Source of the DNA: Halodesulfurarchaeum sp.
GTDB taxonomy: Archaea; Halobacteriota; Halobacteria; Halobacteriales; Halobacteriaceae
Reading direction: 5' to 3'
DNA: 24,661 nt
Assembly (NCBI GenBank): GCA_042216015.1
Contig: JBDGUI010000037.1
Span: 1-24,661 of the forward strand
In this document: in pieces, positions 4,856 to 8,850 of the stretch
Position numbering within the stretch: position 1 is the stretch's first letter
Layout of the letters: each line of letters begins with the position of its first letter
Made by a program: the position numbers and the translations under genes
The notes under the pieces: model-generated
The model's input: the letters and a program-made list of their open reading frames with translations, nothing else
What the model was told of the DNA's origin: nothing
Databases searched by the model: none

Positions 4856-5533
4856 CTAGTCCTCGTTTCGTTGGCCCTTGGCTCGCTCGGCCGCAGCAAG
4901 GTACTCCTCGAGCAATGCCGGAAACTCCCGGCCACGGAGGTACCGGAGGCCGAATTCCTCGGCCCAGTTGATGATCCCGGCGTCCTCGGTGACGACGCCG
5001 GCCTCGAGTTCGCGGGCCAAAACGAGCAGGTCGAAGTCCTCGCGGGAGTCGAGGATCCCCTGTCTGAGCGTCCGTCGGTACTTGTCCCGAAGTTCGGAGA
5101 TCACCTCGTCGGTGGCGGTCTTGTACTCGTGGTCGCCGAGTTCCTCGGCCTCTGTCTCCTGAGCCTCGCGCACCGCACGCTCGGAGACCCGGAGTCCGCG
5201 ATCCACCCGGTCGGACATCTCTTGGACGAACTCGTAGACCACCTCGGCCGGAATCATGACCTCGTAGTGGGCGGGGTTCTTCCGGATGATCCAGGTGTTG
5301 AGCCGTGAGATGAGTTCGGGGCTCAACGAGCGGTCCTCGAGCATCCTCAGGAGTTCCTCCTGGATCGACGGGGGCATGTAACAGGAGATGCCCAATTCCA
5401 GCTTCGCGTTCGCGATGAGGGTGATGAATCGCTCGAGCGCCGCCTCGAGATCCTCGTCGTCCTGACGGATCTCCCCGGTGAGGAAGGCCGAGGTATCGAC
5501 GACGAATCGCTGTTTGAGAGGTTCCTCCGGCAT
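4856..5533 (-). CDS. Protein-only RNase P, HARP (Aq880 homolog; PIN-like 'RNA ligase partner' MJ0950/UPF0278 family)
   Basis: N-terminal RFVVDTS, then CYMPPSI, a [11 protein letters not shown] spike-helix region, [17 protein letters not shown] and VVTED. The expected catalytic aspartates are all present. ATG at 5533. Confidence 0.88.
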
Positions 5534-5652
5534 GGGTGACACTTCGACAGCCGGGGGTAAAGTTCAACCGGCAATTTCGGCGCCTGCCTGGCCACTGGTG
5601 GGGCCCCTCGGGCCGGCGGACCGCTTTTTGCCTCGCCTCCCGTACCCGGGGT
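5534..5652. promoter_or_regulatory. Divergent promoter region shared by HARP and the RNA ligase
   Basis: 119-bp spacer. Minus-strand GAACTTTACC lies ~25-30 nt before the HARP ATG and plus-strand CTTTTTG ~25-30 nt before the ligase ATG, consistent with leaderless transcripts. Confidence 0.5.
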
Positions 5653-6756
5653 ATGGACGAGGCCGCCCTGTTCGACGTCGATACGGGGGATCTCGAGGCG
5701 ATCCGAGAGGCGATGAACACCGAATCGTATCGGGGACGGACCTACCGGTCGCTGAGCCGTCCGGTCCGGGGAGTCGAGCGGGGAACCGTCCGCATTGCAG
5801 ATACCCTCATCAGGGGCTACCCCAGTACCCCACGGGTCCTGGTGCTCGATCCCGGGGTCCCGACGTTCTTCGACGGGTCGATCGCGATCGAGGAGAAACT
5901 CAACGGCTACAACGTTCGGATCGCCCACGTCGGGGAACCGCTCGCGTTCACGCGCGGGGGCCACGTCTGTCCCTACACGACCCGGGTCGCCCGAGCACAA
6001 CTGAACCTCGAGGGGTTTTTCGCCAGTCATCCAGAACACATGATCAATGCGGAATTCATCGGCCCGGAAAACCCGTACACGGCGGCCGACTACGATGTCG
6101 ACTCGATCGAGCCGCGGGTCTTCGACGTTCGACACCGGGAGACGGGTCGTCCGCTCCCCGTCGAGGAGCGGCGGTCGATGGCCGACCGATTCGGATTCCC
6201 CCAGCCCGAACTGTTCGACGTCGTGGACGTCGAATCGGCCGTCGAGGTGATTCGGGACGTGATCGAGGACCTCGATGCCCGTGGCCGGGAGGGCGTGGTC
6301 ATGCAATCACTCGACGGGCGAGACCTCCTCAAGTACACGACGTCTTCCCAGCACCAGTCCGACCTCGAAATGGCCTTTTCGCTGCCTTTCGACTATGGGC
6401 AGGACTTTCTCTTCCCACGACTGGTCCGAGAGGGATTCCAGGCGGTGGAGTTCGAGGAGGACGAAGCGACGGTGCGCGAGCGCGCCCATCGACTCGGTGA
6501 GGCGATCCTCGAACCGATGGTCGAAACGATCCGAACCGTACAGGCGGGCGAGCCCGTCGGGGAGCGACACACCGTCCGGGGCAGTGAGAGCGCGATCGCC
6601 GAACTCCTGGCCCACTTCGACGAACAGGGACTCCGCGTCGAGATCGAGCGGGACCGTCGACTGGGGGACGAACGGGTGGTGGAACTCGTGAAAATCTCGG
6701 ATGCGACCCGGGACAAGATCGAACACTTTCTCGACGGCGGGACGATCGATCGGTGA
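5653..6756 (+). CDS. ATP-dependent RNA ligase, Pab1020/Rnl3 family
   Basis: IRGYP..PR, motif I EEKLNGYNVR, FTRGGHVCPYTT, motif III NAEFIGPENPY, IIIa VFDV, IV GREGVVMQ, V LKYTT, and a C-terminal region with FDYGQDFLFPRLVREGFQ. Confidence 0.92.
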   Translation: MDEAALFDVDTGDLEAIREAMNTESYRGRTYRSLSRPVRGVERGTVRIADTLIRGYPSTPRVLVLDPGVPTFFDGSIAIEEKLNGYNVRIAHVGEPLAFTRGGHVCPYTTRVARAQLNLEGFFASHPEHMINAEFIGPENPYTAADYDVDSIEPRVFDVRHRETGRPLPVEERRSMADRFGFPQPELFDVVDVESAVEVIRDVIEDLDARGREGVVMQSLDGRDLLKYTTSSQHQSDLEMAFSLPFDYGQDFLFPRLVREGFQAVEFEEDEATVRERAHRLGEAILEPMVETIRTVQAGEPVGERHTVRGSESAIAELLAHFDEQGLRVEIERDRRLGDERVVELVKISDATRDKIEHFLDGGTIDR

Positions 6757-6871
6757 GGTTATTCGTATCAGTCATTCTACTGTTTCGATCGGAAAACGGT
6801 GTTAGTCGCTTCAATTCGGTGTTTATTGATTCGTTGCCATCACCTGTAAATCAGATAGGTCAATTGCCCTT

Positions 6872-6902
6872 AGAAAGTGTTAATATGACATACGTCATAC
6901 GT
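6872..6902 (+). promoter_or_regulatory. Archaeal BRE/TATA promoter with an overlapping palindrome, upstream of the candidate ncRNA
   Basis: AGAAA (6872-6876) then TTAATA (6880-6885), 20-25 nt before the 5' strand of the terminal stem. Perfect inverted repeat TATGAC-ATAC-GTCATA at 6884-6899. Confidence 0.65.
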
Positions 6903-6904
6903 TC

Positions 6905-7349
6905 ACATCCCCCTTGGAACGCCACGGGGGCACACTGGACGCCAACGTCCCGGATCGAAAGATCGAGACGGGGCGAGGTAGAGGCCACAACCAAAACGCC
7001 CGTAACAGGGCGGCAAGGTCACAGGTCTCGAAGGAGAACCGCACCGACCCGCCGTCGGGCCGCCATGGCGGTCGGAACCGAAGGCCAAGTACCGGAGCAC
7101 GCGTAAGCGGGCTTCGCGAATATCGACGGCAACGCCGGTGAAAATCCGGCTCACGCCAGCTCACCGGGCACGGCCGGATCCCGGATGAATCCGCTCGCTT
7201 CGCGAACGGAAATCCCGGTGCCAAACCGGGCAACGCCCGAGCTGGCAAGACCCGGTGAGAATCCGGGTAACGCCGTCGCGGGCCGTAAGGGTCGGGGACA
7301 ACGTCTCCCGTCCGGGCCTCAACCGTGCCGTTCCGTTCTGGGGTGTTTT
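6905..7349 (+). ncRNA. Large structured noncoding RNA of unknown family (~445 nt)
   Basis: Ends pair: ACAUCCC 6905-6911 with GGGGUGU 7340-7346, and GGAACG-C-CACGG 6916-6927 with CCGUG-C-CGUUCC 7323-7334. Nested long-range helices 6981-6986/7315-7320, 7044-7050/7289-7295, 7124-7130/7272-7278, 7155-7162/7239-7246 and 7163-7168/7214-7219. GAAA and GUAA tetraloops, two T-loop hairpins, a promoter upstream and a U-tract downstream. No credible ORF. Confidence 0.78.
7346..7349 (+). terminator. Short U-tract immediately after the closing stem (putative archaeal terminator)
   Basis: TTTT directly at the end of the 3' strand of the terminal helix. Confidence 0.4.
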
Positions 7350-7539
7350 CCAGTTCCCGGAGTGTCGGCTCCACCGAGGGGCGTTTCGCCCAATCCACGG
7401 ATCCGTGTTGTCAATTCTCCCGTGTTCGTCCCGCCCTCTTGACACTTCTCCGGTCACTCATTCCATCTCCAATGTTCGGGTGCCAGCCATGCGTGCCATG
7501 ACTCCAATGCTCAATGGGAACCGGCGGGACATCACGGGC

Positions 7540-7677
7540 ATGGTCGAGCCAGGACGGACCGTCGAGGTCCACTACACCGCCCGGATGGTCGATGGGCCGG
7601 ATGCCGGCGAAATCGTGGACACCACGGACGTGGACACCACGGACAGCACGGACGATCGACAACGAGGGAGGGGTTAG
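7540..7677 (+). pseudogene. Truncated FKBP-type (SlyD-like) peptidyl-prolyl isomerase N-terminal fragment
   Basis: MVEPGRTVEVHYTARMVDGPDAGEIVDTTDVD resembles the FKBP N-terminus (VxVHYTG/A...GEVFDTT). Similarity stops at a tandem duplication and the ORF ends after 45 aa. Confidence 0.7.
7614..7643 (+). repeat. 15-bp tandem duplication CGTGGACACCACGGA x2, followed by a degenerate partial copy
   Basis: Read directly at 7614-7628 and 7629-7643, then CAGCACGGA. Confidence 0.85.
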
Positions 7678-7839
7678 CCTGGCCAAGCGAAGTGACGATA
7701 GTGGCTGAACGGCAGGGGCACCGCCTCGCGAATGGGGTTTCCACCGGTGTCAGTTTACGGGCGGTTACATCGAAGAGGGAGAAGACGGAGCGTGCCTCGT
7801 CTCAACCTTTTTCGGCGTCTGGCCCCTCCGGGGTAATGC

Positions 7840-8850
7840 ATGACTCCTGCAGCCGACATCGATCTCGGATTCGTGGACCTCGGCTCGACCGGCATCCAGA
7901 CGAGCGAACTCCAGTTCGGCACCTGGCGGTTCGGGAAGGAAACCGAGGAGGGCAACGTCGAAATCGGTGAGGGGCGGGGGAAGAAGCTCCTCGACGCCTA
8001 TGAGGAGGCCGGCGGCCGATACATCGATACCGCCGACGTCTACGGCGGGGGAACGGCCGAGCGCTGGATCGGCGACTGGCTCGCCGACCGTGAACGCGAG
8101 CGCTATACCATCGCCTCGAAGATCTACTGGCAGATCCGGGAGGGGGATCCGAACAGCCGGGGCACCAACCGGAAGAACCTGCGTCATCGCATCGACGCGT
8201 TGCTCGAGCGTCTCGGGACCAACTACATCGACGTCCTCTACATCCATCGCTGGGACGACGCGACCTCGCCCCGCGAGATGATGAAGACGCTGAATGGCCT
8301 GGTGGAGTCGGGCAAGGTGAACTACCTCGGGGCCTCCACGCTTCGCCCCAACGCCTGGAAGGTCGCCCGGGCAAACGATATCGCTCGCGAACGGGGCTGG
8401 GAGCCCTTCACCGTCCTTCAGCCGCGATACAATCTCGTCGACCGGGAGATCGAGGGCGGTTACCTCGAGATGGCTCGCCACGACGACCTCGCCGTCTGCC
8501 CGTGGAGTCCGCTCGGACAGGGCTTTCTCACCGGGAAGTACAGCCGCGAGGAGGGACTCACTGGCGAGTCTCGGGCCGCCGAATCGAGCCGCTTTGCTGA
8601 GTCCTATCTCACCGAGACGAACTTCGACGTCCACGACGAGCTGAGCGCGATCGCCGAGGAGGTCGGGGCGACGCCGGCCCAGACAGCCCTCGCGTGGCTC
8701 ATGCACCGCGACGGAGTGACTGCCCCGATCGTCGGCGCCCGGACGGTCGAACAGCTCGAAGAGAACCTGGGGGCCGCCGCGATCGAGCTCACCCAGGGCC
8801 AGGTCGACCGACTGACCGAGGCCAAGGAGGGGCCTTACGGGAACCTCTGA
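7840..8850 (+). CDS. Aldo/keto reductase
   Basis: LQFGTWRFG, IDTADVYG (catalytic Asp/Tyr), IASK, YIDVLYIHRWD, QPRYNLVDR, PWSPLGQGFLTGKY, PIVGARTVEQLEEN. Confidence 0.95.
   Translation: MTPAADIDLGFVDLGSTGIQTSELQFGTWRFGKETEEGNVEIGEGRGKKLLDAYEEAGGRYIDTADVYGGGTAERWIGDWLADRERERYTIASKIYWQIREGDPNSRGTNRKNLRHRIDALLERLGTNYIDVLYIHRWDDATSPREMMKTLNGLVESGKVNYLGASTLRPNAWKVARANDIARERGWEPFTVLQPRYNLVDREIEGGYLEMARHDDLAVCPWSPLGQGFLTGKYSREEGLTGESRAAESSRFAESYLTETNFDVHDELSAIAEEVGATPAQTALAWLMHRDGVTAPIVGARTVEQLEENLGAAAIELTQGQVDRLTEAKEGPYGNL

Follow-up and report, generated by a model that had tools for sequence, protein, structure and literature searches.

An apparently undescribed family of structured RNAs in Halobacteria with a modular, nestable arm of paired T-loop-type hairpins

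RESULTS AND DISCUSSION

A structured RNA family in Halobacteria

A contig of 24,661 nucleotides from Halodesulfurarchaeum sp. (JBDGUI010000037.1, analysed over its whole length and called the window here) carries, at positions 7124-7278, a predicted four-way RNA junction with two near-identical hairpins, for which a preliminary description of this DNA had suggested that it may mimic a tRNA elbow or bind tRNA. This segment is not a free-standing element but the variable peripheral arm of a structured noncoding RNA of about 440 nt. The host RNA represents an apparently undescribed structured RNA family of Halobacteria that has a modular, nestable double-T-loop-type arm. The family and its arm extend beyond the coordinates first flagged and are a more important result than the junction alone.

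The family has 22 members including the window, all of them in Halobacteria, and single loci are given L numbers where they need to be told apart. Members were collected by blastn against plasmids, by one pattern scan of genomes, and by further plasmid searches. The blastn search gave three partial matches covering only the 5' half of the RNA; the genome scan, made with a strict pattern of 27 positions taken from the invariant columns of the first alignment, gave 15 loci, all in Halobacteria; and the later plasmid searches gave three further members. An nhmmer profile recovers all 22 members at 162 to 298 bits, 19 of them being its own training set, and it matches the window at 6913-7353 with 271 bits. 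The RNAalifold consensus of 19 members contains 78 pairs, 47 of which show at least one double compensatory change. Large noncoding RNAs supported by covariation are rare in archaea.

At the gathering thresholds of Rfam 15, no model matched at the position of the RNA in the window or in 18 loci, and only unrelated rRNA was reported. Scans at E values up to 10 yielded nothing beyond weak and scattered matches for the RNA of the window, for L017 as a short member, and for L016 as a long one. Full-text searches, among them some aimed at such a haloarchaeal RNA, gave no description of it; section 3 of PMC12153264, which deals with the linkage of the HARP and Rnl3 genes (the pair that stands upstream of the RNA in the window), does not mention it. 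A search of a phage collection gave no match.

The ends of the host RNA gene are predicted from terminal pairing and from a run of T residues. When 6890-7420 is folded, a terminal helix between about 6906-6931 and about 7314-7345 encloses everything else, and its alignment columns (17-30 and 463-479) show AU, GC, CG, and GU alternatives. The features of the gene outside the arm are as follows.

6880-6886, + strand: TATA-like box TTAATAT, about 23 to 29 nt upstream of the first paired bases of the RNA
About 6906-7349, + strand: predicted noncoding RNA gene, host of the arm (terminal helix fold, family consensus structure, and profile match)
6916-6927, + strand: terminal helix, 5' strand, pairing with 7323-7334
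7081-7120, + strand: most conserved core segment, with AAGGCCAAGUA (invariant alignment columns)
7297-7315, + strand: conserved 3' core strand, GACAACGUCUCCCGUCCGG, present with up to 4 differences in each of the 19 members compared
7323-7334, + strand: terminal helix, 3' strand, pairing with 6916-6927
7346-7349, + strand: T-run directly past the terminal helix (read from the sequence; homologs have T-runs at the same place)

A TTTAT/TTAAT-like box aligns upstream of the RNA in all 19 members first in hand, and the box in the window is presumably an archaeal promoter element; the T-run is likely an archaeal termination signal. The most conserved core segment forms a hairpin with a GUAA loop (7092-7117; consensus pairs at columns 204-229) followed by GAA. 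The invariant AGUA (7088-7091) lies opposite the invariant GAA (7118-7120) at the base of the GUAA-capped hairpin, an arrangement that looks like a sarcin-ricin/loop-E motif. Within the conserved 3' core strand, UCUCC pairs with the invariant GGAGA of ..GAAGGAGAACC.. (columns 145-148 and 451-455), while the partner of CGUCCGG is a CUGGACG close to the 5' end (columns 34-40 and 456-462). The arm begins 4 nt past the core segment 7081-7120.

The arm as a four-way junction

The positions assigned to 7124-7278 in the preliminary description agree with the sequence base for base, and the four-way junction that it proposed is exactly the minimum free energy fold of this segment. The energy is -80.6 kcal/mol, compared with a shuffle mean of -58.9 (z of -5.30), and 0 of 200 shuffles folded as well. 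The near duplication of the two hairpins was likewise borne out, as their 15-base motif, CCGGTGARAATCCGG, occurs with at most 2 mismatches at these two places only in the window. By chance, about 0.35 such matches would be expected, and two or more were seen in 6 of 100 shuffles; the comparative support that homologs lend to the predicted junction is stronger than this recurrence statistic. The parts of the arm, from 5' to 3', are listed below.

7124-7130, + strand: closing stem, 5' strand CGACGGC, 7 bp, pairing with 7272-7278 (helix 1 of the arm alignment, with 8 pairs, 90% of cells paired, and 1 compensatory pair)
Linker, + strand: AAC, between the closing stem and the outer 5' hairpin (read from the sequence)
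7134-7150, + strand: outer 5' T-arm-like hairpin, GCCGG-UGAAAAU-CCGGC (helix 2, 100% paired, 1 compensatory pair)
Linker, + strand: UCAC, between the outer 5' hairpin and the central arm (read from the sequence)
7155-7162, + strand: central arm, branched, 8 bp, 5' strand, pairing with 7239-7246 (helix 3, 97.4% paired, 2 compensatory pairs)
7166-7238, + strand: inner copy of the module, partly decayed, nested in the central arm
7239-7246, + strand: central arm, 3' strand (fold and arm alignment)
Linker, + strand: AAG, between the central arm and the outer 3' hairpin (read from the sequence)
7250-7268, + strand: outer 3' T-arm-like hairpin, ACCCGG-UGAGAAU-CCGGGU (helix 8, 96.7% paired, 1 compensatory pair)
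Linker, + strand: AAC, between the outer 3' hairpin and the closing stem (read from the sequence)
7272-7278, + strand: closing stem, 3' strand GCCGTCG, pairing with 7124-7130

The reverse strand of 7124-7278 folds almost equally well (z of -4.94), and the strand of the RNA therefore cannot be chosen from folding energy alone. G-U pairs make up 20 of the 277 cells of the arm alignment, and one pair of the core is G-U in 19 of 19 members; since these would become A-C mismatches on the opposite strand, the RNA is assigned to the + strand, which the promoter-like box and the T-run also fit. A protein-coding reading was rejected: the open reading frames at 6895-7398 (-) and 6753-7106 (+) have no Pfam match, and several 1-nt insertions or deletions between the arm of the window and that of its closest homolog would break any reading frame. 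The arm lies in a gap of about 730 bp between annotatable protein genes.

A repeated module with a T-loop sequence signature

The arm is built from a module whose parts follow in the order stem, AAN, T-hairpin, UANN, central arm, AAN, T-hairpin, UAAN, and stem. Its two T-hairpins have stems of 5 to 6 bp and 7-nt loops of the form U1-G2-N-N-A5-N-N, and all four junction strands (AAN, UANN, AAN, and UAAN) are conserved and rich in A. In the alignment of five nested arms, pairing holds in 93.9% of 277 cells, against 51.1% at most in slid controls, and 8 of 56 pairs differ on both sides. For five single or inner modules, the values are 99.1% of 113 cells, against 46.3% at most in slid controls, and 10 of 25 pairs; both sets are small and made up of related sequences. 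A covariance model trained on five modules finds the untrained module of L015 at 51.3 bits, and in 190 kb of local haloarchaeal DNA it finds no convincing copy outside the RNA (best E value, 0.18). The intact inner modules of L011, L013, and L016, which are three of its five training sequences, score 99 to 103 bits, whereas in the window the model finds no more than two shifted, partial matches (44 and 28.7 bits). In the decayed inner copy of the window, the 5' hairpin has shrunk to CCGG-AUC-CCGG, the central hairpin retains a UUC(G)-type loop, and the 3' hairpin, CCCGG-UGCCAAA-CCGGG (7214-7230), retains U1 and A5.

Eight RNAs provide 26 hairpin slots, and 21 of these hold a 7-nt loop with both U1 and A5. 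Nineteen of the 21 signature loops have G2, and 19 are closed by a G-C pair. The tRNA T-arm has a stem of about 5 bp and a loop closed by G-C, as in G53-C61, and the 19 signature hairpins with G-C closure, on stems of 5 to 6 bp, agree with this pattern. The T-loop has been defined structurally, as a five-nucleotide turn whose positions 1 and 5 are paired, mostly as a U-A Watson-Crick/Hoogsteen pair (PMC6158498); the U1 and A5 of the 21 slots agree with this definition at the level of sequence. The stems vary by covariation (GCCGG/CCGGC, GUCGG/CCGAC, GCUGG/CCAGC, GCUGA/UCAGC, and CCCGA/UCGGG) while the loops stay fixed. The UGNNANN loops thus carry the sequence signature of T-loops, and they may adopt the three-dimensional fold of a T-loop.

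The T-loop-type signature that the preliminary description had seen in its two hairpins is conserved among the large-arm homologs, in 6 of 6 at the outer 5' position and in 4 of 6 at the outer 3' position. Of the UGARAAU loops whose conservation it named as a check, the exact pattern is not kept; the conserved pattern is the broader UGNNANN. The outer 5' loop reads U-G-N-N-A-A-U in all five aligned homologs and UGAAAAA in L015, and the outer 3' loop of the closest homolog, L004, is UUCGAAU, which we take to be the canonical T-loop sequence of tRNA. The signature is lost in 5 of the 26 slots, namely, the inner 5' hairpin of the window, both inner hairpins of L004, and the outer 3' hairpins of L011 and L013, where the loops are UGUGGAA and 8 nt long, respectively.

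Size classes and history of the arm

Arm size, taken as the length that separates the invariant core hairpin from the invariant 3' strand, falls into three classes.

Short, 41-47 nt: 9 members
Medium, 130-153 nt: 4 members
Long, 185-198 nt: 6 members, including the window

Three further members, which were added later, are likewise of the short class, and 12 of the 22 members have no arm. In the short members that were read at the arm site (L002, L019, and L020), the site holds a hairpin capped by a GNRA-type tetraloop, GCAA or AGAA. L018 and L005 carry a single module, and L015 carries one module with a long central arm. In the window, L004, L011, L013, and L016 (five of the six large arms), the central arm of the first module encloses a second one. 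The arm of L007 and L009, which come from one assembly, is of another kind and contains just one T-like hairpin.

A maximum-likelihood tree was calculated from the columns of the core, leaving out the arm. One starred clade (100/99) unites all eight RNAs that have the canonical module, a second clade (100/99) contains the short forms of Natrinema type, and a third, weaker group (85/80) joins the short forms of Halorussus and Halogeometricum with L007 and L009. This topology is consistent with, though it does not prove, a single gain of the module. The inner and outer modules are near duplicates, which points to growth by nested duplication. The clades of the RNA depart from the families of the hosts, the Natrialbaceae appearing in two clades, and some organisms hold two copies of the RNA: L001 and L003 lie on two megaplasmids of one Natrinema strain, and L007 and L009 lie on two contigs of one assembly. 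Taken together, the mismatch and the double copies hint at paralogy or transfer.

Comparison with known RNAs

The arm has its closest precedents in hairpins that project from junctions and whose apical T-loops accommodate an adenosine from a distant site. The conserved apical hairpin of the Rfam consensus for the twister-sister ribozyme, GCCgGUGCAAGCCcGGC, is of the same kind (GG-UGNNANN-CC), and one inner hairpin of L016 matches it at 16 of 17 positions. In twister-sister structures, the apical loop is a T-loop intercalated by an adenosine of a distant junction (bioRxiv 10.1101/2020.11.26.399451), and this loop is probably that of GCCgGUGCAAGCCcGGC. In the cobalamin riboswitch, L4 is a T-loop that directs global folding (PMC6158498). 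The hairpins of the arm likewise branch from a four-way junction with conserved adenines nearby. Unlike in these two RNAs, the module has two such hairpins, arranged pseudo-symmetrically and able to nest, and the remainder of either consensus is missing. Assignment to the twister-sister ribozyme (RF02681) was rejected because the alignment would break helices that covary in the module; the score of L016, 22.3 bits, is below the threshold of 34, and the window gives no match. The cobalamin riboswitch does not match at E values up to 10, and the FMN riboswitch reaches 13.1 bits, against a threshold of 66.2, over a 20-nt hairpin only of the window.

Double T-loops dock tRNA elbows in RNase P, in stem I of the T-box, and in the L1 stalk of the ribosome. 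These interdigitated motifs resemble the arm in that two elements with T-loop character form a compact domain of a large RNA. They differ from it in that both loops of the arm are apical and are parted by a whole helical arm, and interdigitation of the loops and a link to tRNA are unproven. The arm is optional, and RNase P RNAs that have no S-domain likewise exist. Neither the gathering threshold nor an E value cutoff of 10 gave a match of the archaeal RNase P RNA model to the window, L017, or L016, and a motif of the GAGGAAAGUCC type, the CR-I motif of RNase P, is absent from 6903-7355 at up to 2 mismatches.

Variable peripheral arms are found in RNase P (P12-P14 and P18), in the peripheral elements of group I introns, and in the expansion segments of rRNA. 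The arm behaves similarly, in that one fixed site of the core holds nothing, a tetraloop hairpin, or a large branched arm, depending on lineage. In contrast to those RNAs, the core of the host RNA matches none of their families, and no Rfam model matched at the thresholds tried.

Possible roles of the arm

The reading that we favor, tentatively and with slightly less than even confidence, is that the arm is a peripheral T-loop arm that makes tertiary contacts and stiffens or docks onto the core and that it is not a copy of a tRNA. It occupies one fixed site of a well-supported core. At the same site, at least three members have a tetraloop hairpin, and GNRA loops are another classic device for tertiary contacts; together with the conserved A-rich junction strands and the T-loop precedents, this leads us to read the arm as a tertiary-contact device. 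Each loop would fold as a T-loop with a reverse-Hoogsteen pair between U1 and A5, and a purine from elsewhere in the RNA, for which the conserved adenines of the linkers or the core are candidates, would stack into the gap between loop positions 4 and 5; in a T-loop, position 3 is free for pairing. The rigid arm could then buttress or dock onto the core junction beside the AGUA/GAA motif. The fold, its covariation, the loop signature, the architecture of zero, one, or two modules, and a canonical module confined to a single clade are observations; the three-dimensional T-loop fold, the intercalation partners, and any function of the host RNA are putative.

Several points weigh against a tertiary-contact arm. 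More than half of the family (12 of 22 members) lives without the arm, which is therefore not essential to the function of the core. The host RNA in all members, and the T-loops of its arm, are known from sequence alone, although a T-loop is defined by structure. The intercalating base or receptor has candidates only, none of them pinpointed, and no covariation of the loops with other sites was seen, none being expected with 5 to 8 informative sequences. The sets behind the arm and module statistics are small and related, and the shuffle counts are not probabilities. The loss of the signature in 5 of 26 slots indicates relaxed constraint, at least in the inner module.

Alternatively, the hairpins could bind a protein that recognizes the shape of a T-arm or the UGNNA loop, so that the RNA would be a scaffold, sponge, or substrate; this is unlikely. 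A unit of the form CAAN-stem-UGNNANN-stem-UAAAG occurs two to four times per RNA with very similar sequences, the stem sequences (GCCGG and CCCGG) are conserved beyond the needs of pairing, and L004 contributes its UUCGAAU loop. However, Pfam searches of 125 flanking open reading frames at 18 loci gave no consistent protein neighbor, position 2 is G in 19 of 21 loops whereas tRNA has U, and the fixed four-way junction with its conserved linkers suggests a folded unit rather than a set of independent sites.

Rather unlikely is a platform for docking the tRNA elbow, in which the two T-loops of a module would pack together, as in the interdigitated double T-loops, and offer a flat stacking surface for the elbow of a tRNA or a tRNA-like RNA, so that the host RNA would act on or sense tRNAs. 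Such a platform would suit the two signature hairpins of each module, which are always paired and pseudo-symmetric, and the position of the RNA, which stands beside the HARP and Rnl3 genes in the window and adjoins HARP on three plasmids of Halorussus. In known elbow docks, at least one of the T-loops lies in an internal loop or a junction strand, near the other. Here, both loops are apical on separate hairpins of 5 to 6 bp with linkers of 3 to 4 nt, and contact between them is only putative. Moreover, ARAGORN finds no tRNA gene in the window, and the arm is missing from 12 of 22 members, including the three Halorussus plasmid copies that lie directly beside a HARP gene. HARP acts on pre-tRNA (PMC12153264), and the preliminary description had connected it with the RNA through the T-loop domain. 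That connection is not supported, since the HARP-adjacent Halorussus RNAs are armless and any link to HARP would thus not run through the T-loop domain.

Neutral expansion, in which a stable hairpin module was duplicated within itself at a tolerant site and has no function of its own, much as in rRNA expansion segments, is decidedly unlikely. The near identity of inner and outer modules, the decay of the inner module in the window and L004, and the dispensability of the arm in 12 of 22 members together with its confinement to one clade would all be expected. Against this, the loops, closing pairs, and A-rich linkers of the outer module are kept despite diverged cores (tree paths of 0.57 to 0.68 from the window) and the stems change by compensation, which indicates purifying selection on the fold and on the unpaired bases.

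Very unlikely is the broader proposal that the host RNA represents a new class of large RNAs in archaea and acts, as a ribozyme or as the RNA of a ribonucleoprotein, on tRNA or tRNA-like substrates, with the T-loop arm as a substrate-docking domain like the specificity domain of RNase P. As a lead, the order of helices resembles that of the RNase P core: a terminal helix, a second helix, and a hairpin are followed by a long-range helix, which joins two invariant strands rich in purines beside the 3' end. The arm is optional, as is the S-domain in RNase P, its double T-loop resembles known tRNA-elbow docks, and the RNA adjoins HARP/Rnl3 genes in two lineages.

The tRNA mimic of the preliminary description, in which a cloverleaf-like junction with an acceptor-like stem of 7 bp and a T-arm would serve as a substrate or decoy of HARP, is highly improbable and as a family assignment largely refuted. 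The likeness to the cloverleaf consists of the four-way junction, the closing stem of 7 bp, and a 3' hairpin of T-arm dimensions (5 to 6 bp, a 7-nt U..A loop, and G-C closure), to which the UUCGAAU loop of L004 and the HARP gene 1.4 kb upstream in the window may be added. Nevertheless, ARAGORN recognizes no tRNA in the window, no tRNA-family model of Rfam matches at E values up to 10 in 6500-7800 of the window or in 3730-4220 of L016, spans that include the arms, and HARP is near only 4 of 22 RNA loci. The preliminary description had itself remarked that the linkers differ from tRNA geometry, and 3 to 4 unpaired bases do stand on all four junction strands, breaking the coaxial stack of acceptor and T-arm (AAC parts the 3' hairpin from the stem). 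A second T-arm takes the place of the D-arm, the central arm is 8 bp and branched, and the closing stem is internal to an RNA of about 440 nt, so that there is no free acceptor end and no free 5' leader or 3' end.

Whichever role applies, the arm is a clean, reusable building block, a four-way junction with two T-arm-like hairpins, and because the module can nest within itself, the arm illustrates how an RNA can grow in nature through duplication of a module. Should the T-loops dock onto the core, as in the favored tertiary-contact reading, the arm would be a new example of T-loops organizing large RNAs. If they dock instead onto a partner, such as the tRNA elbow, the host RNA would become a candidate player in tRNA metabolism. 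Such a role, if true, would bear on the HARP/Rnl3 gene pair, which is described as still unexplained (PMC12153264), and the adjacency of the RNA to HARP in two lineages is worth remembering.

Genomic surroundings

The annotatable neighbors of the RNA gene in the window are as follows.

4856-5542, - strand: HARP, or "RNA ligase partner protein" (PIN_5; Pfam PF08745, E value of 7.8e-77)
5536-6756, + strand: Pab1020-type RNA ligase, Rnl3 (Pfam PF18330, 2.7e-39, and PF09414, 5.9e-19), ending about 150 nt before the RNA gene
7840-8850, + strand: aldo/keto reductase, downstream

The HARP (PIN_5) and Rnl3 genes form a divergent pair (4856-6756) directly upstream of the RNA, an arrangement that is discussed in PMC12153264. 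At 4 of 22 loci, which represent two lineages, HARP lies within about 4 kb of the RNA. These are the window and three plasmids of Halorussus, and three of the four RNAs have no arm. Conversely, the RNA lies within 3 kb of HARP at three of seven plasmid HARP loci, all in Halorussus. In Halogeometricum borinquense, the RNA and HARP are on separate plasmids, and the plasmid loci L024, L025, and L026 carry the HARP/Rnl3 pair with no RNA nearby. That the adjacency of HARP and Rnl3 is linked to the RNA is unproven.

Searches by tblastn with six proteins of the window, together with Pfam searches of the 125 flanking open reading frames (18 loci), revealed no recurrent neighbor of the RNA. The ligase is near the RNA in the window only, and an XPB-type helicase is near it in L004 and L018 as well as in the window. 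Synteny connects the window with L004, a contig of a Halodesulfurarchaeum assembly: the reductase and the XPB-type helicase share 89% protein identity, and the RNA core shares 90%. A short open reading frame downstream of the RNA, 7489-7677 (+), resembles the start of an FKBP-type isomerase but is cut short; Pfam gives no match for the longer frame, 7255-7677.

In Natrinema hispanicum (L012, 219-340; L017, 6345-8027), the RNA gene stands 0.8 to 2.2 kb from the 5S/23S end of an rRNA operon, and L014 begins at a contig end near the same rRNA-adjacent place. Small genes for HalOD1-domain proteins recur beside the RNA or HARP (L001, 3784-4089; L019, 4166-4471; L022, 2224-2529; and L023, 3914-4716); such genes are numerous in haloarchaea, and their recurrence may be due to chance. 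A small open reading frame that matches DUF7577 abuts the RNA gene in two short-form loci, in differing orientations (L003, 2664-2897; L010, 3530-3868).

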